DNA of 64,000 bases from Fimbriiglobus sp. (lineage in GTDB: Bacteria > Planctomycetota > Planctomycetia > Gemmatales > Gemmataceae). The stretch covers positions 2,932 to 66,931 of the forward strand of contig JAYSYN010000244.1 of assembly GCA_043727575.1 (NCBI GenBank), written 5' to 3'. This document shows positions 6,593 to 61,044 of this stretch, one piece after another; position 1 is the first letter of the stretch; each line of letters begins with the position of its first letter. The position numbers and the translations under genes were made by a program. The notes below the pieces were generated by a model. The model had not been told where the DNA came from, searched no databases, and worked only from the letters and a program-made list of their open reading frames with translations.

Positions 6593-7765
6593 ATGCGCCT
6601 CGCCCGACTCCGCATCCCCCTGCTGGCCTTGGCCCTCATCGCCCTCGGTACCCCGGTGGCTTCCGCGGCCGATGCCAACCCGGAATACAACGGCAAAAAG
6701 TTGTCCGAGTGGGAGGACATGCTGCGGATGGAACAGAACGCCCGGCTGCGCCGGGTCGCGCTGATTTCGATGGGGCAAATCGCTTCGGACAACGCCCTCG
6801 ATTCCGCGCTCGTCCGAAAGATCATGGTCGCCGTGGGCCGGGCGCTGAAGATGGACAACACCGCGTCCGTCCGCAGGCAGGCGGCGGAAATCGTGAACGC
6901 GATGGCCGTGAAACTCCTCGAAGACATCAAAAACTCCGACACGGCTTCGGTCATCCTCGATCTCAGCGAGAACCTCCGCGTCGAGAAAGACACGGAAGTC
7001 CGCCGGGAAGTCGCGGTGGCTCTCGGCCGCTTCGGCGATAAGTCCAAAGGGGCCGCGACGACACTCGCGGACGTTTTGATGGACAAAGACCCGGCCACGC
7101 GCGCGGCCGCCGCCGACGCGCTCGGCCGCATCGGCGTCGGGGCCAGCGCAGCCGCCGATGCGTTGATCCTCCTCTTGAAAGACACCGACAAAGGCGTTCG
7201 CGCGGCCGCGATCTTCGCCCTCGGCCGCATCGACCCGGAAGAACCGGCCAAAGTGTCCACCGCGCTCGTGCCCCTTGTGAAAAGCGAGCCGGATGTCGAA
7301 CTCCGTCGCGCGGTCGTGGCTTCGCTCGGGATTTTGGGAGATCGCAGCCCCGCGACCGTACTCGGCACCGCGGCCGGGTTGCAAGACGCCGATGTCGACG
7401 TCCGCCGCCAAACGGCCATCGCTCTCGCCAAGTTCACCGGCGGCGGCAAACTCGTCGAGAAGGAATTGAAGAAAGCGTTCGAAGAAGACAAAGACAAGCA
7501 AGTCCGGGGAGCCGCGCTGCGGGCGCTCTGCGAAGGCTTCGGCGCCGACGCGAAACTGCTGATCCCGACTATCGTGGCGAGGATGAAGGTCGAGCCGGAG
7601 TTCGACGTGCGGATCGCGATGATCGAAGAACTGAGCGCGCTCGGCGCCGACGGGAAAGACGCGCTGCCCGCCTTGCGCGAAGCGCAGAAGGACCCGCAAA
7701 CCAAAGTGCGCGAGGCGGCCGGCGGGGCCATCAAACGGATCGTGAACCCGAAACCGAAGATGTGA
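6593..7765 (+). CDS. HEAT-repeat (PBS-lyase-type) protein with signal peptide
   Basis: It contains repeated ..D..VR..AA.ALG.. units (DPATRAAAADALGRIG, DKGVRAAAIFALGRI, DVDVRRQTAIALAKF). I chose the ATG at 6593, which is preceded by GGAG and gives the signal peptide MRLARLRIPLLALALIALGTPVASA. The track ORF starts at GTG 6566. Confidence 0.75.
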   Translation: MRLARLRIPLLALALIALGTPVASAADANPEYNGKKLSEWEDMLRMEQNARLRRVALISMGQIASDNALDSALVRKIMVAVGRALKMDNTASVRRQAAEIVNAMAVKLLEDIKNSDTASVILDLSENLRVEKDTEVRREVAVALGRFGDKSKGAATTLADVLMDKDPATRAAAADALGRIGVGASAAADALILLLKDTDKGVRAAAIFALGRIDPEEPAKVSTALVPLVKSEPDVELRRAVVASLGILGDRSPATVLGTAAGLQDADVDVRRQTAIALAKFTGGGKLVEKELKKAFEEDKDKQVRGAALRALCEGFGADAKLLIPTIVARMKVEPEFDVRIAMIEELSALGADGKDALPALREAQKDPQTKVREAAGGAIKRIVNPKPKM

Positions 7766-46581: not shown

Positions 46582-47151
46582 TCACGCCATGATCCAGTCC
46601 ACAGACACATTCCAACCCGGTACTGCGGGCTCCGCATCGGCGAACTCTCCGGTCGCAAATGTGACGAACCGAGTCGGATCGGCGGCCGAATATTTCCGGA
46701 TCGTGCCGCTGTCCGGATCCACGTCCCAGACGACACGCGTGCCCGCTTCGAAGTAGTCCTCCCGCTTCGCGGCCATCTCCCGTTCTGCTGCTAGGCCGTA
46801 ATCCCCTTCGCTCCGGACTTCCACGGCGAAATCGGGCGGTGCCGCTACAAACTTCATCGGCTTCGCGGGCGCCGGGCCCGAATAGTACGAAGCATCCGGT
46901 GAAAAGGACTCCCGGCCCGATGACAATACCGGCACGGCGAAGCCCATCATATCGGTGAAGGCGAAACCGCGTCCGGGAACATCGCAATAGTCCGCCAGGC
47001 TGCGAAAAATTCGTCCCGCGACGATGTTCGGGCGGAATCCTGTTGCCATAGATTTCACGATTCTTCCACGGATCAATTCCGCTTTCTCGGGGATTCGGAG
47101 AAGATCGTCGATCGTGGTTTTGCGGACGGGAAGGGGAGTGGCGATGCTCAT
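46582..47151 (-). CDS. Uma2-family (DUF820) endonuclease
   Basis: TIDDLLRIPEKAELIRGRIV...PDASYY...PDFAVEVRSEGD...KREDYFEAGTRVVWDVDP matches the Uma2 PD-(D/E)xK-type pattern. I trimmed to MSIATPL. Confidence 0.8.
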   Translation of the reverse strand: MSIATPLPVRKTTIDDLLRIPEKAELIRGRIVKSMATGFRPNIVAGRIFRSLADYCDVPGRGFAFTDMMGFAVPVLSSGRESFSPDASYYSGPAPAKPMKFVAAPPDFAVEVRSEGDYGLAAEREMAAKREDYFEAGTRVVWDVDPDSGTIRKYSAADPTRFVTFATGEFADAEPAVPGWNVSVDWIMA

Positions 47152-47235
47152 GCGATATCTCCTTCTAACAGTTTGCATTGTACCGGTGATCGTCCCGCGA
47201 CTCAATTCCGCCTGCCCGACGGGTGTCCGTTTCTT

Positions 47236-48282
47236 TCAAGACTGCAAATTCGATGTCAACCGCTGCCGCAGTTCGTAGGCGGCTTTCTCCGGGGGGACGG
47301 CGTTCAAGAAACAACCGCTGCCCCATTCGAATCCGGCGGCGCGGGCCGTGCGCGGGATCACTTCCCAGTGCCAGTGGTAGTGCGGGTTCAACTTCGCCCG
47401 CAGCGGGCTCGTGTGCAGGTAGGCGTTGTACGCCGGCTCGTCGAGCACTCGGTCGAGGGCCGCGAGCAGATCGAGAAACAACAACGCCAGTTCTTTCAGC
47501 GCCGCGTCGCCGGTGATCTCGAAGTGGCTGGCGTGATACCGCGGCATCACCCAAAATTCGTAGGCGAAACGGGGGGCGAACGGACAGACCGCGATGAAGT
47601 GTTCGGTCTCGCAAACGACCCGCGACCGGGCCGTGCGCTCCTTGGCGATGAGGTCGCAGTAGACGCAATGCCCGCGATCGCCGTGGTACGTTTTCGCGAA
47701 ATCCCATTCCGACCGCACGGCGTCGGGCACCATCGGCAGCGCGATGATTTGCGCGTGCAAGTGGGCCAGCGACGCCCCGGCTTCCGCCCCGACGTTTTGG
47801 AAGACCTGCGCGTAGTGCCAGAGCGCATCCGCCGAAAAAGCCCGGATCCGTTCTCTATAGGCCACGAGGAGATCGGCGTATTGATCGGGAGATAGATTCG
47901 CCGGGTTCGGTTCGTGCTCGCGGCACGGGACGACCACTTCGTGCGCCCCGAATCCCGGGCGGGCTTCGAAAAACGGATCGAGCAGCGGAAGCGTCGAAGT
48001 CATTTCCGAGCGCAGCGCGGGGAACTTGTTCGGGATCACCCGCAATTGCCATCCGGGCGAATCCTTCGCCGAACCGTCGGGTCGCACGGCGTAGACTTCG
48101 TCGGCGGCCAGTTTTTCGTTCCCCTCGCAGAACGGGCAGACGGTACCGGGCTTCACGCGGTCGCGGTGGTGAGGCTCGGTGTGGGCCAGCATGATCGGCC
48201 GGCGGGCCCGCTCCGGCGCGAAGATGACCCAGCGTCCGGTCGCGGGGCAGCGGCGAAACTCGGGCAAAGGATCGTAGTTCAT
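47236..48282 (-). CDS. galT: galactose-1-phosphate uridylyltransferase (HIT superfamily)
   Basis: The Zn motif is CPFCEGNE, the catalytic motif is SLAHLHAQIIAL (HxHxQ), and CVYCDL is present. The 348-aa length is typical. Confidence 0.85.
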   Translation of the reverse strand: MNYDPLPEFRRCPATGRWVIFAPERARRPIMLAHTEPHHRDRVKPGTVCPFCEGNEKLAADEVYAVRPDGSAKDSPGWQLRVIPNKFPALRSEMTSTLPLLDPFFEARPGFGAHEVVVPCREHEPNPANLSPDQYADLLVAYRERIRAFSADALWHYAQVFQNVGAEAGASLAHLHAQIIALPMVPDAVRSEWDFAKTYHGDRGHCVYCDLIAKERTARSRVVCETEHFIAVCPFAPRFAYEFWVMPRYHASHFEITGDAALKELALLFLDLLAALDRVLDEPAYNAYLHTSPLRAKLNPHYHWHWEVIPRTARAAGFEWGSGCFLNAVPPEKAAYELRQRLTSNLQS

Positions 48283-48689: not shown

Positions 48690-49427
48690 TCACGCTTTCG
48701 GCGGGTCGGGCCGCTTCAAAAACGGTTCGAGGGTGTCGCTGGTGCAGACGATGACGTACGCGATGTCGGGTCGGGTCGGATGGGATTTCACGGTCACGCG
48801 GACCAGGCTCGCTTGGGCTTCCTTCAATTGGAGGAGTTTGAACCGCGACTCCTCCACGACGTACACCCGAGCGGTGTGGGTTTCGACCGTTCCGAATTCG
48901 TTCGTGAATCGGCCGTGGAACACGACCACCGGGGCGTCGCGGCCGGCCAGTTCGCCTTTGCCGTGGAAGGCGTAATAGCGGTAGTCGAAGTCGTAGGGCA
49001 AATCCCCGGGCAGATCTTGTTGCGTCAACCATTCGCGGACGGGCGCCTCGCGGAATTCCCAATCGCGCTCGGCGGCGATGGCGACGGCGTCGGTATCGAT
49101 CGTCGGGCGGTTCCGCAAGTACCCGCTGAACCCGACGCCGATGGCCAAAAGCAATCCGGCCGCGAGGGCCGACCATTGGTAGAGTTGCCGGCGGTGACGG
49201 GCTCCGCGGAGTGCGAACCCTTCGCGGAGTAATTTGGAATGCAAGCCGGCCGGGACCGGCACCGATTGCATCGCTTTGGCGAGGGCTCCATGGAAAGCGG
49301 CTTCGTCCGCCGAGATCGCGGCGCAGTGCGGACAAGAGGCGACGTGGCCGGCGAGTGAGGCGCGGTCGTCCGCGGCCAAGTCGGCGGCCGGAAATTCCAA
49401 AAGTATGCGGGCGAGATTGCAATTCAT
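48690..49427 (-). CDS. anti-sigma factor (zf-HC2) with one TM segment
   Basis: The N-terminal HVASCPHC is an Hx3Cx2C motif, and the TM is WSALAAGLLLAIGVGF. Its ATG overlaps the stop of the ECF sigma gene (ATGA at 49424-49427). Confidence 0.75.
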   Translation of the reverse strand: MNCNLARILLEFPAADLAADDRASLAGHVASCPHCAAISADEAAFHGALAKAMQSVPVPAGLHSKLLREGFALRGARHRRQLYQWSALAAGLLLAIGVGFSGYLRNRPTIDTDAVAIAAERDWEFREAPVREWLTQQDLPGDLPYDFDYRYYAFHGKGELAGRDAPVVVFHGRFTNEFGTVETHTARVYVVEESRFKLLQLKEAQASLVRVTVKSHPTRPDIAYVIVCTSDTLEPFLKRPDPPKA

Positions 49428-49972
49428 GGTGACTCCTCCGACTGACCGGGCGAGGCGACTTTCGGGACCGCTTCCGGATCGATTCCGGAAGAGAGCCGGC
49501 CCTTCAAGTAACCTTTGGCCCGCGCCAAACGCGACATCACGGTACCGATCGGCAAATCCATCTGTTCGGCGATGTCGCGGTAACTGAAATCTTCAAAATA
49601 GAACAAGATTAAAGGCGTCCGGAACGTTTCATCCAATTCGTCGAGCGCCGCTTGCAAAGCCGCCGCGTCGATCTCCGGCGGCGCATCGGGCGCGGCCGAA
49701 GCCAAATCGCCGATCGATTCGAGCGGTACCAACTTCTTCCGCCGCTCGTCCCGAATGCGGTGAAGGTACCCGTTCCGCAGAATCCGGAATAGCCAAGGTT
49801 TGGCCCGCTCCGGATTTCGCAACTGTCCGAGCCGCGCAATCGCCTTGCCGAAGGCATCCTGCGTCAAATCCTCGGCATCGGAGGAATTCCCCGCCAACCG
49901 ATAGGCGTAGCGGTAGAGCGCGTCGTAATGAGCATCGATCAGATCGCGCACGCCGAGTTGGGGCGCAGTCAT
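49424..49972 (-). CDS. ECF-type RNA polymerase sigma factor
   Basis: Region 2 is LYRYAYRLAGNSSDAEDLTQDAFGKA...PWLFRILRNGY. Region 4 is FRTPLILFYFEDFSYRDIAEQMDLPIGTVMSRLARAK. Confidence 0.88.
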   Translation of the reverse strand: MTAPQLGVRDLIDAHYDALYRYAYRLAGNSSDAEDLTQDAFGKAIARLGQLRNPERAKPWLFRILRNGYLHRIRDERRKKLVPLESIGDLASAAPDAPPEIDAAALQAALDELDETFRTPLILFYFEDFSYRDIAEQMDLPIGTVMSRLARAKGYLKGRLSSGIDPEAVPKVASPGQSEESP

Positions 49973-50046: not shown

Positions 50047-52680
50047 TCACCGTCGCACCGTCGTCGCCGTGACGCCCTCCTCGGTTTTTTGCAGTCGGAT
50101 CACGACCGGGAAATGGTCGGTAAATTCTTCTTGGTGGCTGACGAGGATGATCCGCTTGAGGTGCCTTTTGAGGCGGTTGAGCTCTTCGGCGGCCGCGCGC
50201 AAGCCTTCTTTGTCGAGCGACCCGAATCCCTCGTCGATGATGACGCATTCGAGGGGACGGGTTTGGCCCGAGGCAAATTGGCCGATGCCGAGAGCGAGGG
50301 CGAGAGCCACGCGGAATTTTTCGCTGCCCGACAGAAAAGCCACCGGCGTCGGTTCCGAAGATTCGGCCCGCCGTACCAACAGGACGAGCGCTTCGCCATC
50401 TCGTCGGGGCTCGCGGCTGAGTTCCAACGCCAAGTCGCCTTCGCTGAGTTTGTGCAAAGTGTCGGTGGCGAAGCGGACGATTTCCACTTCGGCGATGCGG
50501 ACCAATTCGCGCAACAGGCCGGCGTTGCCCAGGAGTCCGTTCAAAGCCGTGTGAATTTTGAGTGCGAATTCCGCCGCCGAAATCTCGGCCACGAGCACGG
50601 CGAAGGCGCGGCCTCGCCGTTGGAGATCGGCCGAAATGTCCCGCGCCGTCTGCCAGTTCGCCTCGGCGTTCAGGGCCGCTTTCTTGGCCGCATCGTGGGC
50701 GAGTTCGGCGTCGCGGATCGGTCTCCGGGCCGCCGGGGGAATGGCGTCGATCCGCGCGGCGAGTTCGCGCGATTGAACTTGCCACTCTTCTCGGCGGGCA
50801 CCGTCCCGCTGGAGGTCTTCGAATACTTCGACGATCTTTCCGCGCAGAAGCCCGGCGAAGTCGATCTCCAGCGCCGCCAGTTCCGCTGTGGTCGTGCCGT
50901 GGCGTCCGACCGGGATCCGTTCGAGCAGCAGGGTCCGGCCGACCCGGTCGGCGTCGAAGCCCTTCTCGGCGGTGGTGAAGTCGCGGGCCGAGTTGCTCGC
51001 CCGAGCCGCGGCGAGGTCCGATTCGACCGCGATCTCGGCGATCCGCACGTCGATCATTGCCAATCCGGCCCGCGCCGCCTCCGCCGCGCGTTCGGACGCC
51101 GCGGTGGATTCCACGAGTCCGGCGATCCGATTTTTCAACAGGCCCGCATCCGAAGTGCCGCCGAAGGATTCGAGGTCGAGGCGTTTGCCCGCGAGCTCCC
51201 GGACGAGCCCGGCGCATTCGCGGGCCTCGCCTTCGAGTTTGGCGCGGCGCGCCCCGCTTTCCTCGGCCGAGGACTTGGCCGCGGACAACGCGCGTTCGCG
51301 TTCCGCCCCGAGCGCGCGCATGGTCGCCACACCGGCTTCGGCGGCCGCGCGTTCCTTCCGGGCGTGCTCCTCCGTAACTTCTTGCCCGCAGGCGGAGCAA
51401 TTCACCCCGATGGTGAGGTCGTCGAACTTGGCCCGCGCTTCCAGGCAGCGAGCCAAGTCGCGGTCGCACCCGTCTTTGTCGACTCGGGCTTGGGTGAACG
51501 CCTCCACCGCGACGGGGTCGGCGGCGACGGCCGTCGCGGTGTCCCCCTCGAGGTCCGCCGGGAATGCCGCGTGCCGAGCGGCGAGTGTCGCCACCGACTC
51601 CGCCATGATCAGAAACTTGGATTGCCCGTCGTGCGCCCGGCGCCCGGCCTCAGCTTCGCGTTCGTGGAGGCCGCAGTCCGACTGCAGCGCGAGTTTCCGC
51701 TCCGCCGCCGCGGTCGCTTCCGCGTGCGTGCGGGCCTTCTCCCCTTCGGCTCGCAAGGTCGCAATTCTCAATCGTTCCAAGGCCGGTTCCGCGTCGATCA
51801 ACGAGATCCGGAGTGGGACGAATGGGCGCAGGTCCGGCAAAATGCCCGCCAGTTCGGAGTACGCCGCGAAGTCGGCGCGGATGCGCCCCGCCTCGGCGGA
51901 ACGCGCCGTCGCTTCCGCGATCTTGCATTCCAACGCGATTCGCATCGGTTCTGCGGTCACCCACACTTCGGATTGGTTCAACCCCGCGGCGGCGGTATCG
52001 CGGGCCTCCGCCGCCTGCTCTTTCAAAAGGGCGGCCGAAACTTCGGCGGCTTCCGCATCGAGGAGTTGCCCCGCCGTGACCTCGGCCATCGCGTTCCGTT
52101 TGTCTTGGAGCGATTTCAGTTCGCCCTTTCGGGCCTTCCATTCTTCCGCGATCCGCGCGGACAATCCTTCGAAGCGCTCCAGGCCCAGCACGCTCTTGAG
52201 GATCGTCATGCGCTCTTTGCCCGTGGCGACGAGGATGGCCTCCGCTTCGCCTTGCCGGAGCAGCACGGACGCTTGGAACGACGCGAAGTTCAATCCGATC
52301 GTATCGACGACCCAGTTTTTCACGGCCGAGACGCTGTCGACGCCGTCCTCGCATTTCCATTGCCCGCCCGTCATCCGTTCGACCGATTGCTTCGGCCCCG
52401 TCGACGACCGTGTCCGGCTGATCCGGTAATCGGCCCCGCCGAATTCGAATTCGAAGCTCACGGCAAAGCGATCCCGCCCGTGGTGGATCAGCGAGTCGGC
52501 GTTGTCGGCCCCGCCGCGGTGCTGGGCGAACAGGCAGTAGGTCATGGCGTCGAACACGGCCGACTTGCCGATGCCGTTGGGTCCGCCGAGCACCCAGAGC
52601 GGCTCGTCGTCCGCGAACTCGATCACGGTTTTGTCGCTGAAACTCAGGAAATTCTCGACGGTCACGCGCTTGGGGATCAT
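50047..52680 (-). CDS. sbcC: SbcC/Rad50-family SMC-like ATPase (877 aa)
   Basis: The N-terminus is MIPKRVTVENFLSFSD and Walker A is GGPNGIGKSAVFDAM. There is a long Ala/Glu-rich coiled coil with a central CxxC zinc hook (VNCSACGQE). The signature motif is LSGSEKFRVALALAL and Walker B is LECVIIDEGFGSLD. I trimmed to Met57 of the track ORF, whose ATG overlaps the sbcD stop. Confidence 0.88.
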   Translation of the reverse strand: MIPKRVTVENFLSFSDKTVIEFADDEPLWVLGGPNGIGKSAVFDAMTYCLFAQHRGGADNADSLIHHGRDRFAVSFEFEFGGADYRISRTRSSTGPKQSVERMTGGQWKCEDGVDSVSAVKNWVVDTIGLNFASFQASVLLRQGEAEAILVATGKERMTILKSVLGLERFEGLSARIAEEWKARKGELKSLQDKRNAMAEVTAGQLLDAEAAEVSAALLKEQAAEARDTAAAGLNQSEVWVTAEPMRIALECKIAEATARSAEAGRIRADFAAYSELAGILPDLRPFVPLRISLIDAEPALERLRIATLRAEGEKARTHAEATAAAERKLALQSDCGLHEREAEAGRRAHDGQSKFLIMAESVATLAARHAAFPADLEGDTATAVAADPVAVEAFTQARVDKDGCDRDLARCLEARAKFDDLTIGVNCSACGQEVTEEHARKERAAAEAGVATMRALGAERERALSAAKSSAEESGARRAKLEGEARECAGLVRELAGKRLDLESFGGTSDAGLLKNRIAGLVESTAASERAAEAARAGLAMIDVRIAEIAVESDLAAARASNSARDFTTAEKGFDADRVGRTLLLERIPVGRHGTTTAELAALEIDFAGLLRGKIVEVFEDLQRDGARREEWQVQSRELAARIDAIPPAARRPIRDAELAHDAAKKAALNAEANWQTARDISADLQRRGRAFAVLVAEISAAEFALKIHTALNGLLGNAGLLRELVRIAEVEIVRFATDTLHKLSEGDLALELSREPRRDGEALVLLVRRAESSEPTPVAFLSGSEKFRVALALALGIGQFASGQTRPLECVIIDEGFGSLDKEGLRAAAEELNRLKRHLKRIILVSHQEEFTDHFPVVIRLQKTEEGVTATTVRR

Positions 52681-53885
52681 GCGGTCCTCGATTCGGTCAA
52701 GAAGGTTTCGGCGAGGGCGAGGACCGCGGCCGCATCGGCATCGCCGGCGAGCCGGTCGCTCAAAAACGTCCGCACCGTGGAATCGAATCCGGCCCGGGAG
52801 TCGTAGCGCTGCGCTGGGGCCGCGGCGGTCGATTCCTCTGCGCACCAACGGATCTCGTGATACCGCGGGAAGGTCCGCTTGAGTTGCCGGGTGATTTCGT
52901 CCCGACTGGCCCCTTCGCCCATTCCTTTGATGAAAATGCGGACGATCGCGGTCTCGCGATCGGGGTATTTTTCGGTCAGCGCGGCGATGTCGTCGAGCGT
53001 CGGGTCCGTCAGTTCCACCGTGTGGAACGGCGTCGGCGGAATCGGCAATCGCACCGGATCGACCGAGTTCGCCCCGAGGATTTCCAGCAGCAGCACGCCG
53101 TGCTCGTCGTGCGTCTCGCCGAAATCGAGACGGTCCAAACTACCGGAGTAGCGCACGTGTGCGGCGCCGCCAAGCATCTGTGGCAAGTGGATATGACCGA
53201 GGGCAACGTAGCTCCACATCGGGTTGAGGTCGCCGAATTGAAATTGGTGATCTTTCGATGCATCCCACTTGGAATACGGTGCGTGGGGGGAGTGGCCCAC
53301 AACGTGCAAATGGGCCATCAAGACGGTCGGCAGGGTGAGGTCGATCTCACCGGATTTTTTCTGGATCCAGTTGGCGATGATCGATTGGACTCGCGTGTTA
53401 GCCGCTTCGGGGGTCGGGAAGTCGGCCGCCGAGACATTGAATCGGCTGCCGAACGGGTAAGGCACCAAAACGAACTGCACGCGTTGTCCGCCGCGATCCG
53501 GCAGTACGACCACCGCAGGTCCATTGGCTAGGTAGAGTCGGCCGCCGGCGAGGTGTGCTCCCGACTTCACCGGCACGGCCAACTTCATGCCAGTCAAGAA
53601 TGCGTCGATGCGCACGTCGCGGTCGTGGTTTCCCGTGATCGCGAGGATCGTGCCGCCGCGTTCGAAGAATGGTAGGAACGCTTCGTGCAAGTGTCGGAAC
53701 GCCGCGGTCATTTTCGGCACCGAGGCTTGCTCGCTGAAGAGATCGCCCGCGATCAGCAGCAACTCGGCGTCGTGTTCGACGCAGAGCGCCGCGACCCGTT
53801 CGACGCGAGTTTCAAGGTCCTCCGTGCGGTCGTTGCGGCCCAGTTCGTCGCACAGGTGCCAGTCGGCCGTGTGGATGATCTTCAT
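52677..53885 (-). CDS. sbcD: SbcD/Mre11-family metallophosphoesterase nuclease
   Basis: MKIIHTADWHL, LLLIAGDLF, ILAITGNHD and MAHLHV are calcineurin-like phosphoesterase motifs in Mre11 order. GGAG lies in the 8-nt gap after herA. Confidence 0.9.
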   Translation of the reverse strand: MKIIHTADWHLCDELGRNDRTEDLETRVERVAALCVEHDAELLLIAGDLFSEQASVPKMTAAFRHLHEAFLPFFERGGTILAITGNHDRDVRIDAFLTGMKLAVPVKSGAHLAGGRLYLANGPAVVVLPDRGGQRVQFVLVPYPFGSRFNVSAADFPTPEAANTRVQSIIANWIQKKSGEIDLTLPTVLMAHLHVVGHSPHAPYSKWDASKDHQFQFGDLNPMWSYVALGHIHLPQMLGGAAHVRYSGSLDRLDFGETHDEHGVLLLEILGANSVDPVRLPIPPTPFHTVELTDPTLDDIAALTEKYPDRETAIVRIFIKGMGEGASRDEITRQLKRTFPRYHEIRWCAEESTAAAPAQRYDSRAGFDSTVRTFLSDRLAGDADAAAVLALAETFLTESRTA

Positions 53886-53893
53886 GGCGCTCC

Positions 53894-55648
53894 TCAGAAA
53901 ATGTCCCGTTCGGGCACGGTGTAGGTTTTGGCCGCGGCGCCGGCTTCGGCCGGTTCGGCGTCGCCTTCGCTCAGGGCGAAGGGCGGGAAGGGGATCTTCG
54001 CGAGCATCGGCTCGCGGAAGCTCGGCTGGTAAAGCAGTTTCTCTTCCGGCAGCAATTGCGACGCCGCGTTGCGGGTTGAGTGACCGAGGAATTTCCACAC
54101 TTCGTGGTTGAGTTCGAGAGTGCCCGAGCGGCCGACGGCGCGCACGGCGGCGTTCTCGATCACGCGCGGCTTCACGAGGCTCGCCTGCTGCTGGGCTCCG
54201 AGCAGGATCACCCCTTGGCTGCGACCTTCGGCGGCGACCGTCTCCAATTGTTGCGTGATCGCGTCGGAGCTATCTTTGGGCGCGAAGCGGTTGAGTTCGT
54301 CGAGCGTGATGAGGTACTTCAACCCGATGACTTGCTTCGCGCTCTGCGTCGCCATGATCTGGTGGAAGACCGCCGCGACGACGAACCGCTGCAAGCTCGG
54401 CGTCCGGTGGATACCGTTGAGATCGATGACCAGCGGCGACTCGATGCCCGTCCGCGGGATCTTCAGCGGATGGCCTTTATTGTCTTCGCGGCGCAGAACC
54501 CCGTTGCCCTCCATCACGATGTATTTCAATCGGCGGAAGAAGCTGCCTTTCGTGGCCAAGACGAAGTCGCCGAAGAAGACTTTCTCGTTCTTGTTCAGTT
54601 TGAACCAGTCGAGCATTTCCTGAAAAGTCTGCGGGTAATCGTCGCCGCCGACTTTGAGTTTCGGATCGTCGGAGGAGCCGCCCGTCAAGTATTCTTCGAC
54701 TTCCCCGACGAGTCCGCCGAGGTTGGCGTTGCCGAGGTCGTCCCCCGCGAACAGGTACTTGAACAAGCCCCCTTCGATGATGTCCGACAGCGACCAACTG
54801 TACGGGGCCACGTCGCTGCTGCGGCCGCCGGTCGCCACCGGAGTCGTCAAACCCCTCTCTTGGGGTGCGAAGAATTGCGGTTTCACGAACGGCCGCGGGT
54901 CGTCGACACCGAGCGCGCGCCAATCCCCGCGATTGGCCGATTCGTTCTTGCGGAACTCCGTGTTCCAGCGGTCGATGAAGAACAAGTCGGAGTTCTTCAC
55001 GTTGAAGATCACCGGCACCAGTTGCAATCGCTTGACGTCACCGGGCTTCTCCCGTTTCTGTTTCGCCGCTTCCCGCAGCAAGAGCCAGTTCACCGTCAGC
55101 AGCAGTGTCGATTTGGTGCCCAGCCCGGCGATGCCGTTGACGTTCAAGTGCCCGCCGTTTTTCCCCAAGAGGAAGTCCAAATCGACGCTCGCGGTCCCGG
55201 CGAACGCTTCGCCGCCGTTCCGCAGCAACCCCACGGCGAGTTTGTGCCCCATGCGGTCCACCCCGTACCCTTTGGCCGCTTCCTCCGGCGTCGCCAGAAA
55301 GACTTCGCTCTCTTCGGTGGGGGGCGTGTGGGCGACCGGGTCGGTCCGCAAGATTGCCACCTCGGCGAAGGTGACCCCTTCGGATTCGAATGGCGGTTGC
55401 TCGCCGGTGCGGCCGTCGAACCGCGCGGCCTCTTCGCCGATGTCCTTCTGCCGGCTGCGGCGGTACACCTCTTGGACGATGCCGACGAACGACACGGTCC
55501 GCGTGCCGACGGTCGATTTGGTGACGACGATCTGCGTGCGCTCCACGCTCTTGGCCCGATCGACCCAAAAGTAGAACACGCCGCTGGTCGACTCGTGCTC
55601 GGCCGGGCAGGCCACGCGGCCCAATGACTCGCGGGGGGATTCGCTCAC
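53894..55648 (-). CDS. herA: HerA-like (FtsK/HerA superfamily, DUF87) ATPase, 584 aa
   Basis: The N-terminal barrel-like GVFYFWVDRAKSVERTQIVVTKSTVG..VSFVGIVQEV is followed by the P-loop region NGIAGLGTKSTLLL and Walker B YLITLDELNRFAP. The GTG start overlaps the nurA stop (GTGA at 55645-55648). The upstream 283 codons of the track ORF overlap nurA and are rejected. Confidence 0.72.
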   Translation of the reverse strand: MSESPRESLGRVACPAEHESTSGVFYFWVDRAKSVERTQIVVTKSTVGTRTVSFVGIVQEVYRRSRQKDIGEEAARFDGRTGEQPPFESEGVTFAEVAILRTDPVAHTPPTEESEVFLATPEEAAKGYGVDRMGHKLAVGLLRNGGEAFAGTASVDLDFLLGKNGGHLNVNGIAGLGTKSTLLLTVNWLLLREAAKQKREKPGDVKRLQLVPVIFNVKNSDLFFIDRWNTEFRKNESANRGDWRALGVDDPRPFVKPQFFAPQERGLTTPVATGGRSSDVAPYSWSLSDIIEGGLFKYLFAGDDLGNANLGGLVGEVEEYLTGGSSDDPKLKVGGDDYPQTFQEMLDWFKLNKNEKVFFGDFVLATKGSFFRRLKYIVMEGNGVLRREDNKGHPLKIPRTGIESPLVIDLNGIHRTPSLQRFVVAAVFHQIMATQSAKQVIGLKYLITLDELNRFAPKDSSDAITQQLETVAAEGRSQGVILLGAQQQASLVKPRVIENAAVRAVGRSGTLELNHEVWKFLGHSTRNAASQLLPEEKLLYQPSFREPMLAKIPFPPFALSEGDAEPAEAGAAAKTYTVPERDIF

Positions 55649-56739
55649 AACTCGCCTCCGCGAAAGAGCCCCGCCGTCCGGTAGAGCCGATTGGCCAACA
55701 CGGGGAAGGGGGTGAACAAGGGTTTGAGACAATCTTCGGCGCGGACGATCGGGTCGAGGGACACGGGCATGCGGGCGTAGCTTTGGCTGCGGCAGCGGGC
55801 GTCGATCAACCAGCGCGAGAGGCGGTTGACGAATCCGAAGTCGCCGCGGAACTGGACTTCGAACTGGTCCCAAGGCACCTCGGCGCGGACGTAGCCCCAG
55901 TTCGGCGCGAGCTGCGAACCGCCGCTGAGTTTCAAGAACCATGTGGCGACGGCGATCCGGCCTTCGTTCTTGCCGTCGACCCCGGCAATCTTGAACACGG
56001 GCGTGCGTTGGCCGGGTCGCAGGTTCAACAGCGTCCGCCAGCCGGCGTCGTGCAAGTAGGCGGCTTCTTGCATCTTGGCGATACCGATGAGCAGCGGGGA
56101 ATCGGCCGGGGGGTTCCCGGTGACGCGGCTCAGCGGGCCGTCGACCAGCGTCGGCACACCGCGGTCCACGGCCAGGGCCAACCGTTCCAGATTCTTCATC
56201 TCTTCGACGGCGCGGACGCGGGCTTGGGATCGCATCGCCTCGTAGTCGAACGGGCTGAACTCGGTGAGGTCCGGGAGATTCGCGGGCAAAATGCGGAGCT
56301 TCAATTCCGGCGTGTTGGCCAAGTCGTGTGCGAAGGCTTCGACCTCTTCCCACGGAAACGGATCGGCGACGAAACTGAGCACGCGGTCGACGGCGGCGAA
56401 CTCGCGCTCGAAACGCCGGCCGACACTGCGGAGGGCCACGGCGCCGACCTCCGAAAGCAACAGGGGAATGGGCCAGCCGAGTTCGGTTTTCACGCACAGC
56501 ACCGGATGACCCGTGTGAGAGCCGTCGATGAAGCGGATGGGGTACTCGCCCGGCCGCGCCGGCGCCTCGGCTACGGAAACCGGCGCCCAGTCCGCTTCGG
56601 CCATTTCCACCGCGCGCTCGACGGCCGGCTTGGACTTCTCATCCCCCTCCGGTACCAACGGGATGTTCGGCTGCGGCGGGGTGGCGCCGACGGCCGCGGC
56701 CCCGTACTTCTTCAGAAAGGGGCTCGGCTCATTCCGCAT
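55645..56739 (-). CDS. nurA: NurA-like nuclease (364 aa)
   Basis: IRFIDGSHTG (DGS motif), a later PTLVDGPLSR, and an IGIAK block occur in the order I recall for NurA domains. The gene sits directly upstream of herA. This assignment rests on motifs and context only. Confidence 0.6.
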   Translation of the reverse strand: MRNEPSPFLKKYGAAAVGATPPQPNIPLVPEGDEKSKPAVERAVEMAEADWAPVSVAEAPARPGEYPIRFIDGSHTGHPVLCVKTELGWPIPLLLSEVGAVALRSVGRRFEREFAAVDRVLSFVADPFPWEEVEAFAHDLANTPELKLRILPANLPDLTEFSPFDYEAMRSQARVRAVEEMKNLERLALAVDRGVPTLVDGPLSRVTGNPPADSPLLIGIAKMQEAAYLHDAGWRTLLNLRPGQRTPVFKIAGVDGKNEGRIAVATWFLKLSGGSQLAPNWGYVRAEVPWDQFEVQFRGDFGFVNRLSRWLIDARCRSQSYARMPVSLDPIVRAEDCLKPLFTPFPVLANRLYRTAGLFRGGEL

Positions 56740-57325
56740 CGGTCACCCCCAAGTTTTTGAGGCGGTAGCGGATCGCTTCGCGGCTCACGAGCAGTTCCGC
56801 CGCCAGCCGGTAGGCCAGTACCCCGGGCGGGCAGACGCCGTGCTCGGATCTCAGTTCTTCGGCCCGCGCCCGCAGCACGGCCTCGGGCATCAACAATTCC
56901 GCGGCGAAGCGATTGGCTTCGCGTTCGAGAACATCGGTCGCTTCGTCCGTCTCGAGCATCGTCTTCTGGCTATCGGCCCGGTAGCGGCCCATGCTCTCCC
57001 GGTGGAGGACCGCGTGGCCGAGTTCGTGCGCCGCGCTGAAGCGCCGCCTCGGCAGAATGTCGTCGGCGTTCACGAACGCATGACCGATCCGCCCGGCGAA
57101 ATACAAGAAGCCCGCGAGCGGTTCCGCCGGATCATCGAACGGTTCGACCGTGGAGCCTTCGGCTTGCAAATGTTCGATCACGCGACCGCAGTTGAGCCCC
57201 GACAGCGCGACGTGCGAGAGGCCGAACTCTTGGAAGAAACGATTCAAAGGCACCGGCCCGCGCATAGCCGGGTCGACGGGCAATCCGAGTTCCGTCCGGA
57301 GGCGGGCGATGGCATCGGCGATCAC
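56729..57325 (-). CDS. ImmA/IrrE-family zinc metallopeptidase (DUF955)
   Basis: RRRFSAAHELGHAVLH (HExxH) is followed by EREANRFAAELLMP, the family hallmark. The GTG start overlaps the upstream stop (GTGA at 57322-57325). Confidence 0.85.
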   Translation of the reverse strand: MIADAIARLRTELGLPVDPAMRGPVPLNRFFQEFGLSHVALSGLNCGRVIEHLQAEGSTVEPFDDPAEPLAGFLYFAGRIGHAFVNADDILPRRRFSAAHELGHAVLHRESMGRYRADSQKTMLETDEATDVLEREANRFAAELLMPEAVLRARAEELRSEHGVCPPGVLAYRLAAELLVSREAIRYRLKNLGVTDAE

Positions 57326-57858
57326 TTCGGCGCCTCCGGTTTGGACCCGCGGCGGGCGGCGAGTTGATATTCCACGGCCGAGGCTCGACGGCGTTCCAGC
57401 TTCAATGCCGCCCGCTGAAAGACGGGCCGGTACTCGACGGGGACCGCACCGAACCGCGCCTCCAACCAGGCGGTGAGCTTCGATAGTCCGAGGTTGTCCG
57501 GGAGCGCTTCCGACGAGCTTTGCAAGGCGGCGTTGAACGCGTGCGATTCCGCCGCCAATCCATCGGGCGTGTGTCGGAACAATTCCCGCGCCACATCGCC
57601 GACGGTGATCGGACCGCCGTCCGGCCGGACAATCGCTGCGCTTTTCAAATGCGTTTCCACCGCCGAACCGACGGTCCGCGCCGCCGCCCGCTCTTCGCGC
57701 TCGGCGTTGTCGGCGTCGAGGGCGGCTTCGATTTCGAACAGGGCCCGTTCGAGTTCGGGATCGAACGTGGCGGCTTCCCACATCCGGTCGAGGGCCGGAA
57801 AATCGCCGGCGTCCAGTGCCGCGAGGTACGCTTCTGTCATTCGGTCGAGGTCGTTCAC
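57322..57858 (-). CDS. hypothetical soluble protein in anti-sigma position (172-178 aa)
   Basis: It lies immediately after an ECF sigma gene. Either GTG 57858 overlaps the sigma stop (GTGA), or ATG 57840 is the start. The N-terminus MTEAYLAALDAGDF resembles the ..AYLDGEL.. opening of many anti-sigma factors. It has no TM and no zf-HC2. Confidence 0.45.
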   Translation of the reverse strand: MNDLDRMTEAYLAALDAGDFPALDRMWEAATFDPELERALFEIEAALDADNAEREERAAARTVGSAVETHLKSAAIVRPDGGPITVGDVARELFRHTPDGLAAESHAFNAALQSSSEALPDNLGLSKLTAWLEARFGAVPVEYRPVFQRAALKLERRRASAVEYQLAARRGSKPEAPK

Positions 57859-58439
57859 GATGGCCCCCCGCGCAGGGTCGGCGACAACAATTGGAACAAT
57901 TCCTTCTTGGCCCGGTAGAGTTTGACGCGGACGTTCGCCGCCGTCAGCCCGACGACGCCGGCGACTTCCTCGGACTTCAACCCGTCGAAGAACGTCAGTT
58001 CGAGGATTTGCCGGTTCAACGGGTCGAGCAAACCGAGAGCCCTGCGGACCGCGGTTCGATCCGCCTCGCGGATGAATCGATCTTCCACCGCCTCGGTTCG
58101 ATCCGGCAGCGCATCGACCGAGTGATCGGCCCGGTGCTTTCGGACTTTCGCGAAAGCTCGCTTGGCGATGTTCCGGACGAACCCGTGGATCCAACCCGCG
58201 ACACCGCCGTTGCGCGTGGGATCGAAACTCGACGCTTTGGCCAACGCCGCGGCTTGCGCTTCGGCCGCAAAATCCTCGGCGTCGCGTTCCAGTCCCGACC
58301 GGGTCGGGTAAGTTTTCACTCTGCCGAGATAGATCCGGGTACTGGTCAAAATTTTGCGGACCGTGTCGGGATCGCCGAGTGCTGTCCGCACGGGGCACGG
58401 CTCCGCCAATGTCGGTGGCGGGTCGAGGAGATGGGCCAT
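57855..58439 (-). CDS. ECF-type RNA polymerase sigma factor
   Basis: Region 2 is DAEDFAAEAQAAALAK...GWIHGFVRNIAKRAF. Region 4 is LDPLNRQILELTFFDGLKSEEVAGVVGLTAANVRVKLYRAKKEL. Confidence 0.85.
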   Translation of the reverse strand: MAHLLDPPPTLAEPCPVRTALGDPDTVRKILTSTRIYLGRVKTYPTRSGLERDAEDFAAEAQAAALAKASSFDPTRNGGVAGWIHGFVRNIAKRAFAKVRKHRADHSVDALPDRTEAVEDRFIREADRTAVRRALGLLDPLNRQILELTFFDGLKSEEVAGVVGLTAANVRVKLYRAKKELFQLLSPTLRGGPS

Positions 58440-58542
58440 GGAGGGAACACCCGGGCGAACGTGGGGGGCGATCAGCGTTCTATTCCCATTCGCGCCGGGT
58501 GTGTTACGAATAATTGTGGAGAAGTGAGTTTTGGGTCGCGGG

Positions 58543-60006
58543 TCACCCCTTGATGACGCCGATGGGCCGCATGCGGGCGACCTTCTTGCTCAATCCCGCG
58601 TCGTGGACTACTTCCACGACGTGATCGACGTTCTTGTACGCCTTCGGTTGCTCTTCGGCCAAGCCCTGCCGGCTGCTGCTCATCGCGATCACGCCGCGCG
58701 CTTCCAGCTCTTTGTCGATCCGGCGGCCGACAGCGTCCTTCACCGCGGCGGTGCGGCTCATCGCGCGTCCGGCCCCGTGGCAGGTCGTGCCGAAAGTGCG
58801 TTCCATGCTGCCCGGCAGGCCCACGAGGACCCACGACGCCCGCCCCATGTCGCCGGGGATAATCACGGGTTGACCGGTTTTTTGGAACGCGGCCGGCAAC
58901 TCCGGGTGCCCGGCCGGGAAGGCCCGCGTGGCCCCCTTGCGGTGGACCCAGACCTTCTTGAGCTTCCCTTCGACCGTATGCTCTTCGAGCTTCGCGATGT
59001 TGTGGGCGACATCGTAAAGCAGGTCCATGCCGAGGTCGGTCCACGGGCGACCGAAGACGCCGGCGAAGACTTCGCGCGTTTGTTGCATGAGCAACTGCCG
59101 GTTCGTGAAACCGAAGTTCGCGGCGGCCCGCATCGCGGCGATGTACTTCTTCCCTTCGGGAGAATCGACCGGGGCGCAGGCCAACTGGCGGTCCGGCAGC
59201 ACGATGCCGTACTTGCCCGGCGCATCGCGAAACGCGGCGAGCGCGTCGTCGCAGACTTGGTACCCGAGGCCGCGCGATCCGGAGTGGATCATCACGCAAA
59301 TTTGGTTCAATTCCAGCCCGAAAGCTTCCGCGACTTCCGCGTCGCAGACTTGATCGACGACCTGCACTTCGAGGAAGTGGTTGCCGCTACCCAGGGTGCC
59401 GCACTGATCGCTGCCGCGCTTCACGGCGTGATCGCTGACTTGCTCGGGGTCGCCGCCGTCGATGTGCCCGTTGGCCTCGGTGTGCAGTAAATCTTGGGGC
59501 ACGCCGAGATCGCGGTCGATGGCGAACGCCACGCCCTCGCCCATGAGCTTGCGCGTCTCTTTCGAGTCAAACTTATACTTGCCGCTGCGCCCGACGCCGG
59601 CGGGGACACTGTAAAAGAGCGCCTTGATAAGTTCGCGCAAATGCGGCTTCACGTCGTCGAGGAACAGATTCGTCTTCACCAAACGAACGCCGCAGTTGAT
59701 GTCGTAGCCGACGCCGCCGGGGGAAATGACGCCGCCCTCGGCCGGGTCGGTGGCGCAGACGCCGCCGATGCAGAATCCGTAGCCCCAGTGGATGTCCGGC
59801 ATGGCGAAGCTGCCGACCTGAATCCCCGGCAGCGTGGCGACGTTCGCCACTTGATCGAGGGCTTGGTCGTTGCGGATCGATTCCATGAGCCGCGCGTTGG
59901 CGAAGACGATCCCGTCGACGCGCATGTCGCTGCGGTACGACTTCGGAATCCGGTAGGAGTTCGCATCGATCGATTCGAGCGGCCCGCTGTATATGCCTTT
60001 GGCCAT
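58543..60006 (-). CDS. rtcB: RNA-splicing ligase RtcB
   Basis: PDIHWGYGFCIGGV, GGVGYDINCGVR, GTLGSGNHFLE, IHSGSRGLG and CHGAGR are canonical RtcB motifs. I trimmed to MAKGIYSGPLE (Met80 of the track ORF). Confidence 0.95.
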   Translation of the reverse strand: MAKGIYSGPLESIDANSYRIPKSYRSDMRVDGIVFANARLMESIRNDQALDQVANVATLPGIQVGSFAMPDIHWGYGFCIGGVCATDPAEGGVISPGGVGYDINCGVRLVKTNLFLDDVKPHLRELIKALFYSVPAGVGRSGKYKFDSKETRKLMGEGVAFAIDRDLGVPQDLLHTEANGHIDGGDPEQVSDHAVKRGSDQCGTLGSGNHFLEVQVVDQVCDAEVAEAFGLELNQICVMIHSGSRGLGYQVCDDALAAFRDAPGKYGIVLPDRQLACAPVDSPEGKKYIAAMRAAANFGFTNRQLLMQQTREVFAGVFGRPWTDLGMDLLYDVAHNIAKLEEHTVEGKLKKVWVHRKGATRAFPAGHPELPAAFQKTGQPVIIPGDMGRASWVLVGLPGSMERTFGTTCHGAGRAMSRTAAVKDAVGRRIDKELEARGVIAMSSSRQGLAEEQPKAYKNVDHVVEVVHDAGLSKKVARMRPIGVIKG

Positions 60007-60020
60007 GGTGAATCCCCATA

Positions 60021-60443
60021 TCAAATATCGACGATGACTTCCGCGAGGAAGCCGCCGTCGGTTTCTTCCAATTTCAAACCGTGGTAGGTGATCGCTTTCA
60101 CTTCCCGACTGAGCAGATGCCGCACAGGGTCGAAAGGTTCGCCCGAAATCGTCGCAGTCAATCCGGTCGCCGTCACGGCGACCTCGAACCGACACCACAG
60201 CATCCGCGCTTCGTCGGAGCGGTGCAGCAATTCCCGCAGCCAATCGAACAACAGGTATTCCCGGTCCGTCCCCGCAATGGCGAGTATTTGCGATTCGGTC
60301 GGTCGCACGGCCCCGGGCTCATCGACCATACACGCGAGCAGGCACGCCCCCGCCTCGGCGAAGAGGGTGTTCAAGTCCGCCGCGCGGATGCGCAACCCGA
60401 TGTCGGCGGTGTGGTCGAACAACTCGTGCATACGGTGAATCAT
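60021..60443 (-). CDS. archease (RtcB activator)
   Basis: MHELFDHTADIGLRIRA...EVKAITYHGLKLEE is the archease pattern. It is about 140 aa and lies 14 nt upstream of rtcB. The start could be 60443 or 60431. Confidence 0.85.
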   Translation of the reverse strand: MIHRMHELFDHTADIGLRIRAADLNTLFAEAGACLLACMVDEPGAVRPTESQILAIAGTDREYLLFDWLRELLHRSDEARMLWCRFEVAVTATGLTATISGEPFDPVRHLLSREVKAITYHGLKLEETDGGFLAEVIVDI

Positions 60444-60496
60444 GGCCCAGCGGAGAGACTTCCGCAATGGTGGAACTTTCCGGCTACACTCACCCC

Positions 60497-60982
60497 ATGG
60501 CCGACACCCCGATCGCAGCCGTGTACGACGAACTCCGAGCGCTGGCCGAGCACCGGCTCGCCGACGACCCGGCTGGGTGGTCGCTCGGGGCGACGGCCCT
60601 CGTCCACGAGGCCTATTTGAAGCTCCACGGCAAGGCGTTGTGGGAATCGGACCGGCACTATTTCCACGCCGCGGCGCAGGCGATGCGGCGGATCCTCGTG
60701 GACCGCGCCCGCGCCGCAAAAGCGGACAAACGCGGCGGCGAACGTTCCCGAGAACCGCTCTCCGACATCGCCGGTTCCCCGGTCGATTATGTCGCACTCG
60801 ACGAAGCTTTGACTCTGTTCGCATCCGAGGATCCGGAGGCTGCCGGATTGGTTCAACTCAGGTTTTTCGCCGGACGTACGCGGGATGAATCGGCGTCGCT
60901 GTTGGGCATATCCCCACGCCAGGCGGACCGACTATGGGCATTCGCCAAAGCCTGGCTATTTCAACGACTTTCGGAAATCTGA
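60497..60982 (+). CDS. ECF sigma factor of the kinase-associated planctomycete type (TIGR02999-like)
   Basis: YDELRALAEHRL...ATALVHEAYLKL...W.DR.HYFHAAAQAMRRILVDRARAAKADKRGG...LVQLRFFAGRTRDESASLLGISPRQADRLW. I chose Met11 of the track ORF. Confidence 0.85.
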   Translation: MADTPIAAVYDELRALAEHRLADDPAGWSLGATALVHEAYLKLHGKALWESDRHYFHAAAQAMRRILVDRARAAKADKRGGERSREPLSDIAGSPVDYVALDEALTLFASEDPEAAGLVQLRFFAGRTRDESASLLGISPRQADRLWAFAKAWLFQRLSEI

Positions 60983-61044
60983 GAATCATCGGCGCGAAGC
61001 GATCACAAATCTCGCATTCTGGTCAAACGCTTTGGGAGTCACCG

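Follow-up and report, generated by a model that had tools for sequence, protein, structure and literature searches.

Seven minus-strand open reading frames (ORFs) at 50047-58439 of a 64-kb contig segment of Fimbriiglobus sp. (GenBank assembly GCA_043727575.1, contig JAYSYN010000244.1; the whole 64,000-nucleotide stretch that was analyzed is hereafter the window) follow each other in the order sigma-X-M78-nurA-herA-sbcD-sbcC. They encode a sigma factor of the extracytoplasmic function (ECF) group, a protein of a new family (X), a zinc metallopeptidase of the M78 family, and four enzymes that act on DNA ends (NurA, HerA, SbcD, and SbcC). The arrangement recurs in several phyla and on two plasmids. 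On balance, we lean towards reading these genes as a mobile cassette in which a protease-triggered sigma switch would drive a machine for the resection or degradation of linear DNA, with an accessory role in conflict or defence favoured.

An earlier note on this stretch had given the coordinates, the strand, and all six junctions of the seven genes, each of which was recovered exactly (Table 1). Stop and start codons overlap as GTGA between sigma and X (57855-57858), X and M78 (57322-57325), and nurA and herA (55645-55648), and as ATGA between sbcD and sbcC (52677-52680). The genes of M78 and nurA share an 11-nucleotide (nt) overlap (ATGCGGAATGA, 56729-56739), while herA and sbcD are separated by an 8-nt spacer (GGAGCGCC, 53886-53893). 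Neither a terminator-like hairpin on the minus strand nor a sigma-70-like promoter was found in the interior of the operon, and the seven genes are probably co-transcribed. The gene calls agree in length with homologues from elsewhere, i.e., X with a 100% identical protein of 178 amino acids (aa), and the NurA-like and HerA-like proteins with homologues of 357-377 and 580-585 aa, respectively.

A scan of a genome collection with an alignment of NurA-like sequences retrieved 56 loci, to which 14 were added through look-ups of individual homologues (including the contigs L067-L070, which carry gene fusions) and two plasmid matches. All seven genes were found in the same order in 34 of the 39 non-redundant loci that were long enough on both sides. 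The three regulators were present in 50 of 54 loci and SbcD-SbcC in 41 of 44, an arrangement far beyond chance. The hosts belong to Gemmataceae, Isosphaeraceae, other Planctomycetota, and Pyrinomonadaceae (Acidobacteriota), and the locus closest to the window comes from a Fimbriiglobus-like metagenome-assembled genome (L005). A contig of Dormibacterota carries the four effectors without detectable regulators, beside a relaxase-type gene. Two complete cassettes are plasmid-borne. In Ca. Chlorohelix allophototropha (Chloroflexota) the carrier is a 241-kb plasmid, on which Swt1-HEPN, TIR, kinase, and DUF4258 genes come before the cassette and an IS200/IS605 element comes after it. In the cyanobacterium Aulosira laxa it is a 40-kb MOBV-mobilizable plasmid, roughly one quarter of which is taken up by the seven genes. 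In a neighbour-joining tree of HerA the phyla are mixed: the copy of the cyanobacterial plasmid clusters with Acidobacteria, and that of the Chloroflexota plasmid joins a planctomycete branch. From this mixing and the plasmid-borne copies we conclude that the cassette moves as a unit. The adjacency of the regulators and the quartet, noted at first in this genome, was thus found in dozens of genomes, in several phyla, and on two plasmids.

The identity of the four effectors was assessed by profile searches, structural models, and catalytic motifs. An AlphaFold2 (AF2) model of the NurA-like protein, built on 33 homologues (predicted local distance difference test, pLDDT, 82), matched by Foldseek the NurA of Deinococcus radiodurans (DrNurA, 7f6d_G, E 2.5e-13), TM1739 of Thermotoga (1zup, 1.5e-9), and the Sulfolobus protein SsoNurA (2ygk, 4e-5), and nothing else. 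D72 (in the IDGS of RFIDGS), E97, and D200 are invariant in the 33 sequences. The protein had no match in Pfam or NCBIfam at E <= 0.1 and none in PADLOC, and its sequence-level support is a profile match to DrNurA (7f6d_H, E 0.006). Membership of this 364-aa protein in the NurA family, proposed from the sequence beforehand and borne out by the fold comparison, is thus supported by modelled fold and motif. The 584-aa protein, likewise proposed to be HerA, aligned with the D. radiodurans HerA (DrHerA, 7f6d_B) by phmmer with an E value of 3.4e-46 over residues 18-321 and 366-573. Both have a deviant Walker A motif of the form G..G.[GA]TK[ST] (GIAGLGTKS here, GISGVATKT in DrHerA), and the Walker B motif LDELN aligns as well. 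SbcD passed TIGR00619 (101 bits, cutoff 77.65), matched Pfam Metallophos (7e-11), and displays the motifs DWH, GDL, GNHD, and HIH. SbcC matched Pfam AAA_23 (1.7e-17), with SMC_N spanning residues 4-871, and scored 177 bits with TIGR00618, under the cutoff of 478.5. It has a Walker A motif GPNGIGKS, a CSAC hook at residue 428 (its mid-point), a signature LSGSE, and a Walker B motif VIIDEGF. For both proteins, bacterial SbcD/SbcC models outscored those of archaeal Mre11/Rad50.

SbcCD opens hairpin or protein-blocked DNA ends. Complexes of a NurA dimer and a HerA hexamer thread duplex DNA and degrade one or both strands (PMC3326311, PMC9960219, PMC12977600), and HerA-NurA, which degrades both strands, has been proposed to be antiviral (PMC12977600, PMC3326311). 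By analogy, the four effectors together are predicted to form an end-dependent resection or degradation machine comparable to RecBCD. The neighbouring, overlapping genes of nurA and herA lend indirect support to a predicted binding of a NurA dimer by a HerA hexamer within it.

The earlier note had regarded this quartet as a reproduction of the herA-mre11-rad50-nurA operon of thermophilic archaea. What stands is that the activities of HerA, NurA, Mre11/SbcD, and a zinc-hook Rad50/SbcC are encoded by four contiguous genes, overlapping or 8 nt apart, in one operon; what does not stand is that these are archaeal-type orthologues in archaeal order. Here, the order is nurA-herA-sbcD-sbcC, NurA and HerA are nearest to the proteins of Deinococcus (including the deviant Walker A motif), and SbcD passes the bacterial SbcD model. 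Moreover, unlike the archaeal operon, the cassette has its own sigma/X/protease switch, occurs in plasmid copies, and is distributed among mesophilic soil and freshwater phyla. The quartet is therefore a parallel assembly from bacterial-type parts and not a member of the archaeal family of operons. The best matches in sequence and fold are found in the nurA-herA pair of Deinococcus-Thermus (PDB 7f6d), which has the same protein types, the same order of nurA then herA, and overlapping genes, but is linked there neither to sbcCD nor to a dedicated regulator. In the literature searched, bacterial herA-nurA genes are described mainly in Deinococcus-Thermus (PMC12977600).

As for the regulators, the first gene was confirmed as an ECF-type sigma factor by TIGR02937 (69.1 bits, cutoff 42.9) and by Pfam Sigma70_r4_2, which region 4 passes with an E value of 3e-12; region 2 scored 21.7, just under the Pfam cutoff of 24. 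An alignment of orthologues revealed a conserved N-terminal extension of about 45 residues with a PV..AL motif. About 41 nt before the ATG of this gene lies a promoter composed of a -35 element GTAAC (58507-58503), a 16-nt spacer, and a -10 element GGAATA (58486-58481). Of 37 non-redundant loci, 36 carry a motif TTTyyGTMAC-N16/17-[GC][CG]AA[GT][TA] whose distance to the sigma gene downstream of it is fixed. When a weight matrix trained on related loci, with the window excluded, was run over both strands of the 64 kb, this site was the single top match (23.3, equal to the training median; runner-up 15.7). Both plasmid cassettes, that of Chloroflexota and the cyanobacterial one, likewise have the GTMAC-type motif upstream of their sigma gene, and the Aulosira plasmid carries two tandem promoter-like copies (GTAAG/GTAAT-N17-GCAATT) at 6685-6730 and 6780-6825. 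Such a pattern would be expected if an ECF promoter were autoregulated and moved together with its sigma factor, and dependence of the promoter on the sigma factor of the cassette is predicted.

The third gene encodes a peptidase that matches Pfam Peptidase_M78 (1.1e-21) and PADLOC capP (5.8e-22). Its HELGH motif, at residue 100, aligns with that of CapP (PDB 7t5t, 2.2e-5). M78 peptidases activated by single-stranded DNA (ssDNA) include IrrE/PprI and CapP (PMC10904395, PMC13228613), and the cassette resembles ImmA/ImmR, IrrE(PprI)/DdrO, and CapP/CapH in that an HExxH peptidase of this family and a small regulator are encoded side by side where a stress or immune operon begins, with natural fusions of the two. 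It differs from these switches in that the regulator, X, is not a DNA-binding repressor of the XRE type but a helical protein of a new family with an ECF sigma factor for a partner, and in that the predicted output is activation by a released sigma factor rather than de-repression.

The AF2 model of X is all-helical and two-lobed (pLDDT 82.5). Its family comprises 159 clusters at 90% identity and 402 at 50% (among 1.84 billion representatives) and is confined to the context of this cassette. In distant cassettes, the corresponding position is occupied by a homologue over the full length of X, with hhalign probabilities of 96.9% for Acidobacteria, 96.8% for the Chloroflexota plasmid, and 99.3% for the cyanobacterial plasmid. 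Near the C-terminus, planctomycete copies have the motif YQLAARR, of which A167, A168, and R169 are invariant; the plasmid copies have QLAAARE/QLAAARRQ and those of Acidobacteria ATRAKR. Four metagenome contigs (L067, L068, L069, and L070) contain six-gene cassettes in which X and M78 form a single polypeptide of 427-452 aa. Among the cluster representatives of the X family, four mutually divergent ones are such fusions, and just before the linker to the peptidase three of them have QLAA[TR]R and the fourth QVAAAR. An ECF sigma gene directly precedes the fusion gene in every contig examined and, where the contig continues, NurA-like (hhalign 99.9%), SbcD, and SbcC genes follow. One fusion was present in two independent samples, which shows that it did not arise through misassembly.

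In HTH-M78 pairs and fusions (where HTH denotes helix-turn-helix), such as the matches to PADLOC RmrA and PDB 9vzy, the peptidase is accompanied by an XRE-type repressor, whose place X would take by analogy. We infer that X is the substrate of the protease, that the QLAA-R motif marks the cut, and that X acts on the co-translated sigma factor. More speculatively, planctomycete copies that are cut after LAA would acquire an ssrA-like end. The cassette would then work as follows. X would hold the sigma factor inactive until the arrival of a signal, probably one linked with invading DNA or damage to DNA, as with IrrE and CapP; the M78 peptidase would then cleave X at, or close to, the conserved motif QLAA|R(R) of its C-terminus. 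The freed sigma factor would transcribe the whole operon from the GTAAC-N16-GGAATA promoter in a positive autoregulatory burst. SbcCD would open or trim blocked and hairpin ends, after which NurA2-HerA6 would processively resect or degrade the duplex, the net function being an inducible, RecBCD-like processing of linear DNA ends. This would serve to destroy phage or plasmid DNA, in some lineages possibly feeding or cooperating with CRISPR adaptation. It is conceivable that the ssDNA made by end processing feeds forward through an ssDNA-sensing protease, with the reservation that the peptidase of the window lacks the second domain of CapP and IrrE. Dedicated ECF sigma/anti-sigma control has been described for CRISPR-Cas and CBASS (PMC6061681, PMC11506125). 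In the DdvS/DdvA pair of Myxococcus, a dedicated ECF sigma factor that is encoded together with a negative partner drives a neighbouring locus for nucleic-acid defence, as is proposed here for the sigma factor and X. However, DdvA is a transmembrane protein with a recognisable anti-sigma domain, whereas X is cytoplasmic, has no such domain, and is linked to a cytoplasmic metallopeptidase.

A number of observations weigh against the reading outlined above, some of them concerning the switch and others the role of the cassette. With respect to the switch, X had no match in Pfam, NCBIfam, PADLOC, or PHROG. A Foldseek search of the PDB with its model returned nothing below E 2, neither an anti-sigma fold nor any similar solved structure, and a profile search of the PDB returned noise only. 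No HTH or anti-sigma domain was detected by sequence or fold, and X as a known anti-sigma factor or HTH protein is unsupported by these family, fold, and profile searches. The earlier description of X as anti-sigma-like therefore holds for its position beside the sigma gene but not for any family or structural match, and it is gene position alone that suggests sigma binding. The peptidase, in turn, is a single-domain short form whose match to the capP profile (242 positions) is confined to positions 32-152. Its assignment to the ImmA/IrrE type stands as regards the M78 family and the HELGH motif, but it lacks the GAF-like second domain of IrrE and CapP, which in CapP forms the ssDNA-binding groove (PMC13228613). 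For this reason we treat the analogy to damage sensing only as a lead. Finally, the planctomycete promoter matrix did not find its box in the Acidobacterial loci, which have a conserved upstream sequence of their own; in four Pyrinomonadaceae loci (L054, L055, L056, and L064) a different conserved box, ACTGTCCGAATTCGGCT...CAAA, stands upstream of the sigma gene.

These considerations leave some room for a different switch in which X is not an anti-sigma factor. In one version the peptidase would trim the N-terminal extension of the sigma factor, with X as an inhibitor or adaptor of the protease; in another X and M78 would be a hitch-hiking, COG2856-type pair resembling a toxin and its antitoxin. 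Pro-sigma processing is undergone by sigma-E/K of Bacillus, and the extension of about 45 residues with its PV..AL motif would provide a comparable target, but that motif is not kept in the Acidobacterial copies. The missing anti-sigma fold and the fusions, which tie X to the protease and not to the sigma factor, also speak for a different switch, as do the M78 domains common in predicted antitoxin and repressor fusions (the NCBIfam spr1629 match). On the other hand, the sigma gene always directly precedes X, fusion versions included, the two genes overlap by 4 nt, and X has no HTH and belongs to a family found in this cassette only. We consider such a switch quite unlikely. A mirror-tree analysis of the seven genes yielded mainly a correlation among neighbouring blocks, as recombination would give, and did not discriminate between interaction partners.

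With respect to the role of the cassette, many loci, that of the window included, sit among ordinary genes (here RtcB/archease and a second ECF pair). Pyrinomonadaceae cassettes have conserved flanks, with a LysR gene upstream and a 2Fe-2S protein downstream, and NurA and HerA are under strong purifying selection, with a nonsynonymous to synonymous ratio (dN/dS) of 0.06-0.11. These three features fit stable chromosomal repair equally well. In addition, the PADLOC scan identified no named system, NurA, X, the sigma factor, and SbcD being without any match. A collection of 50,697 phage records contained no NurA-like match, which leaves a phage origin unsupported. The cassette might accordingly be read as a housekeeping, damage-inducible operon for the repair of double-strand breaks, with an SOS-like sigma/X/M78 switch and no immune role, in which NurA-HerA and SbcCD replace RecBCD/AddAB or work beside it. 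All four effectors are classical repair enzymes, the NurA-HerA pair of D. radiodurans promotes recombination (PMC9960219, PMC12977600), and the M78 peptidase IrrE governs the radiation response of Deinococcus (PMC10904395). The cassette is, moreover, a single locus amid housekeeping genes in many cases.

Against repair as the sole role stand the plasmid copies, one filling so much of a mobilizable replicon and the other lying beside TIR and HEPN genes, the evident transfer across phyla, and the recurrent cas and DpdA/DpdC-like neighbours. The losses also speak against it. In the viable, cultured Fimbriiglobus ruber (L002 11101-14559, NIDE01000014.1), herA is split into pieces of 280 and 303 aa by an insertion of about 1.7 kb with a 428-aa ORF on the opposite strand that has no Pfam match, and an independent read-assembly contig (L003) breaks off at that very point. 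In Limnoglobus roseus, another cultured isolate, SbcCD is absent from the cassette, which is reduced to five genes. Lastly, between the window and L005 the flanks, NurA, HerA, and SbcC share about 92% DNA identity with a synonymous divergence (dS) of 0.2-0.39, whereas the three regulators and SbcD (56729-58439 and 52677-53885) share 54-85% with a dS of 0.5-0.95 and a higher dN/dS. This mosaicism of alleles indicates, as far as such divergence patterns can, recombinational replacement of the regulators and SbcD. We regard a purely housekeeping function as possible but rather unlikely. An accessory role in conflict is favoured instead, on account of plasmid carriage, cross-phylum transfer, TIR/HEPN, cas, and DUF6884/TGT neighbours, the losses of herA and SbcCD, and mosaicism.

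The genes that accompany the cassette in some lineages bear on this role. Seven loci from scattered parts of the HerA tree have type I cas genes (a cas4-cas1 fusion, cas2, and cas3) on the same strand as sbcC, starting 27-160 nt after it. It could be argued that the cassette assists type I CRISPR-Cas adaptation as an accessory module whose fragments of invader DNA would be captured as spacers by the neighbouring Cas4-Cas1/Cas2, as those of RecBCD/AddAB are elsewhere. Consistent with this, Csa3a of Sulfolobus co-activates the adaptation cas genes and the nurA-herA-mre11-rad50 genes (PMC5587795). However, cas neighbours occur in only 7 of about 40 loci that could be judged, none were found next to the cassette in the window, on the plasmid copies, or in the Acidobacterial copies, and the adjacency could be mere clustering within defence islands. 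We consider this reading very unlikely.

In five or six loci, from different phyla, the immediate neighbour of the cassette is a DUF6884/TGT-like pair (L041, L048, L053, L069/L070, and the Aulosira plasmid, L066); on the latter the two genes bracket the seven of the cassette. These copies are 52-58% identical across phyla, and the pair is absent from the window. The DUF6884 protein matches the PADLOC candidate PDC-M57A (7e-11) and, weakly, DpdC, and the TGT-superfamily protein weakly matches DpdA. The pair may be a partner in DNA modification of the 7-deazaguanine type. Taken to its furthest, our reading of the cassette as a mobile conflict module would make it a new immune class, in which M78 would cut X, a novel anti-sigma factor, at QLAA|R, a RecBCD-like mobile shredder of linear invader DNA would be released, and coupling to CRISPR or DNA marking would vary by lineage. 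The coupling to cas4-cas1/cas2 would then mean spacer acquisition, and that to the DpdA/DpdC-like genes a 7-deazaguanine marking similar to restriction-modification. This extended proposal, couplings included, is a tentative one that we hold to be on the doubtful side.

The cassette was not recognised as any named defence system in the earlier note, and the PADLOC check came to the same result. The matches that it did return were generic, namely capP/RmrA for the M78 peptidase, mad3/LmuB for the ABC-type head of SbcC, and HerA at E 0.003. Sir2-HerA and DUF4297-HerA have in common with the cassette the coupling of a HerA ATPase to a nuclease-type effector, but no Sir2 or DUF4297 effector is present. 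Together with Lamassu, they were rejected as likenesses of generic ATPases only, the LmuB and mad3 matches being to a generic ABC/SMC head. MADS was also rejected: the C-terminus of SbcC matches mad3 (2e-26), but the mandatory mad6-8 and methyltransferase are absent. In searches of the full-text literature we found no description of a sigma/M78 triad or of a bacterial NurA-HerA-SbcCD operon, and the main text of the ECF classification paper does not mention M78, IrrE, NurA, or HerA.

Table 1. Features of the cassette in the window, and genes beside it in other loci (prefix L; positions within the locus named)
Feature	Position	Strand	Basis or remark
Promoter	58481..58507	-	conserved ECF-type motif upstream of sigma gene
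g1, ECF-type sigma factor, 194 aa	57855..58439	-	NCBIfam TIGR02937, Pfam Sigma70_r4_2
g2, protein X, 178 aa	57322..57858	-	new all-helical cytoplasmic family; putative anti-sigma/protease substrate
g3, M78 zinc metallopeptidase, short form, 198 aa	56729..57325	-	Pfam Peptidase_M78, PADLOC capP
g4, NurA-type nuclease, 364 aa	55645..56739	-	AF2 model and Foldseek, IDGS motif
g5, HerA-type hexameric translocase/ATPase, bacterial type, 584 aa	53894..55648	-	phmmer against DrHerA
g6, SbcD/Mre11 nuclease, 402 aa	52677..53885	-	TIGR00619, Pfam Metallophos, motifs
g7, SbcC/Rad50 ABC-type ATPase, coiled coil and zinc hook, 877 aa	50047..52680	-	Pfam AAA_23, SMC_N, motifs
cas-adjacent loci	L002, L004, L037, L041, L043, L045, L063		e.g. 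L063 16816-21104; L004 16830-21104
DUF6884/TGT-like genes	L066 5850-6626, 16265-17326; L041 6397-7939; L048 17322-18877; L053 17465-18480; L069 3-863

Several other genes surround the cassette in the window. Directly upstream, on the same strand, is an RNA-repair pair composed of the genes of the RNA ligase RtcB and archease (58543-60243 and 60021-60824, minus strand). The cassette promoter of L005 is about 2.1 kb away from RtcB, with a DUF1559/N-methyl (type IV pilin-like) gene in between, and because of this separation RtcB is not considered part of the cassette. Further upstream, a large Ser/Thr kinase with TPR repeats (60934-63999) runs off the end of the window. On the other side, 74 nt downstream of sbcC, genes follow for another ECF sigma factor, unrelated to the first, and for a putative anti-sigma protein with a weak likeness to DUF3379 (49424-49972 and 48690-49427, minus strand), a pair that is kept in L005 and not in other loci. 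A HIT/GalT-like nucleotidyl transferase (47236-48282) and a putative endonuclease of the Uma2 family (46582-47205) were also identified.

Taken together, the cassette is a real, apparently undescribed, and probably self-regulated module that would attack or repair broken DNA ends. What is new is the combination of known families with one new protein family, in a conserved and mobile arrangement with a proposed new regulatory logic. It would extend the biology of NurA-HerA well past archaea and Deinococcus-Thermus, and would show that bacteria independently assembled an archaeal-like set of four end-processing enzymes, here as a transferable unit. Likewise, it would offer a new mechanism of sigma activation, in which an M78 protease acts against a new family of partners whose natural fusions hint at the site of cleavage. 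The occurrence of the cassette on small plasmids and, in some lineages, near genes for CRISPR adaptation or putative DNA modification bears on the question whether HerA-NurA serves repair or acts as a nuclease against viruses.

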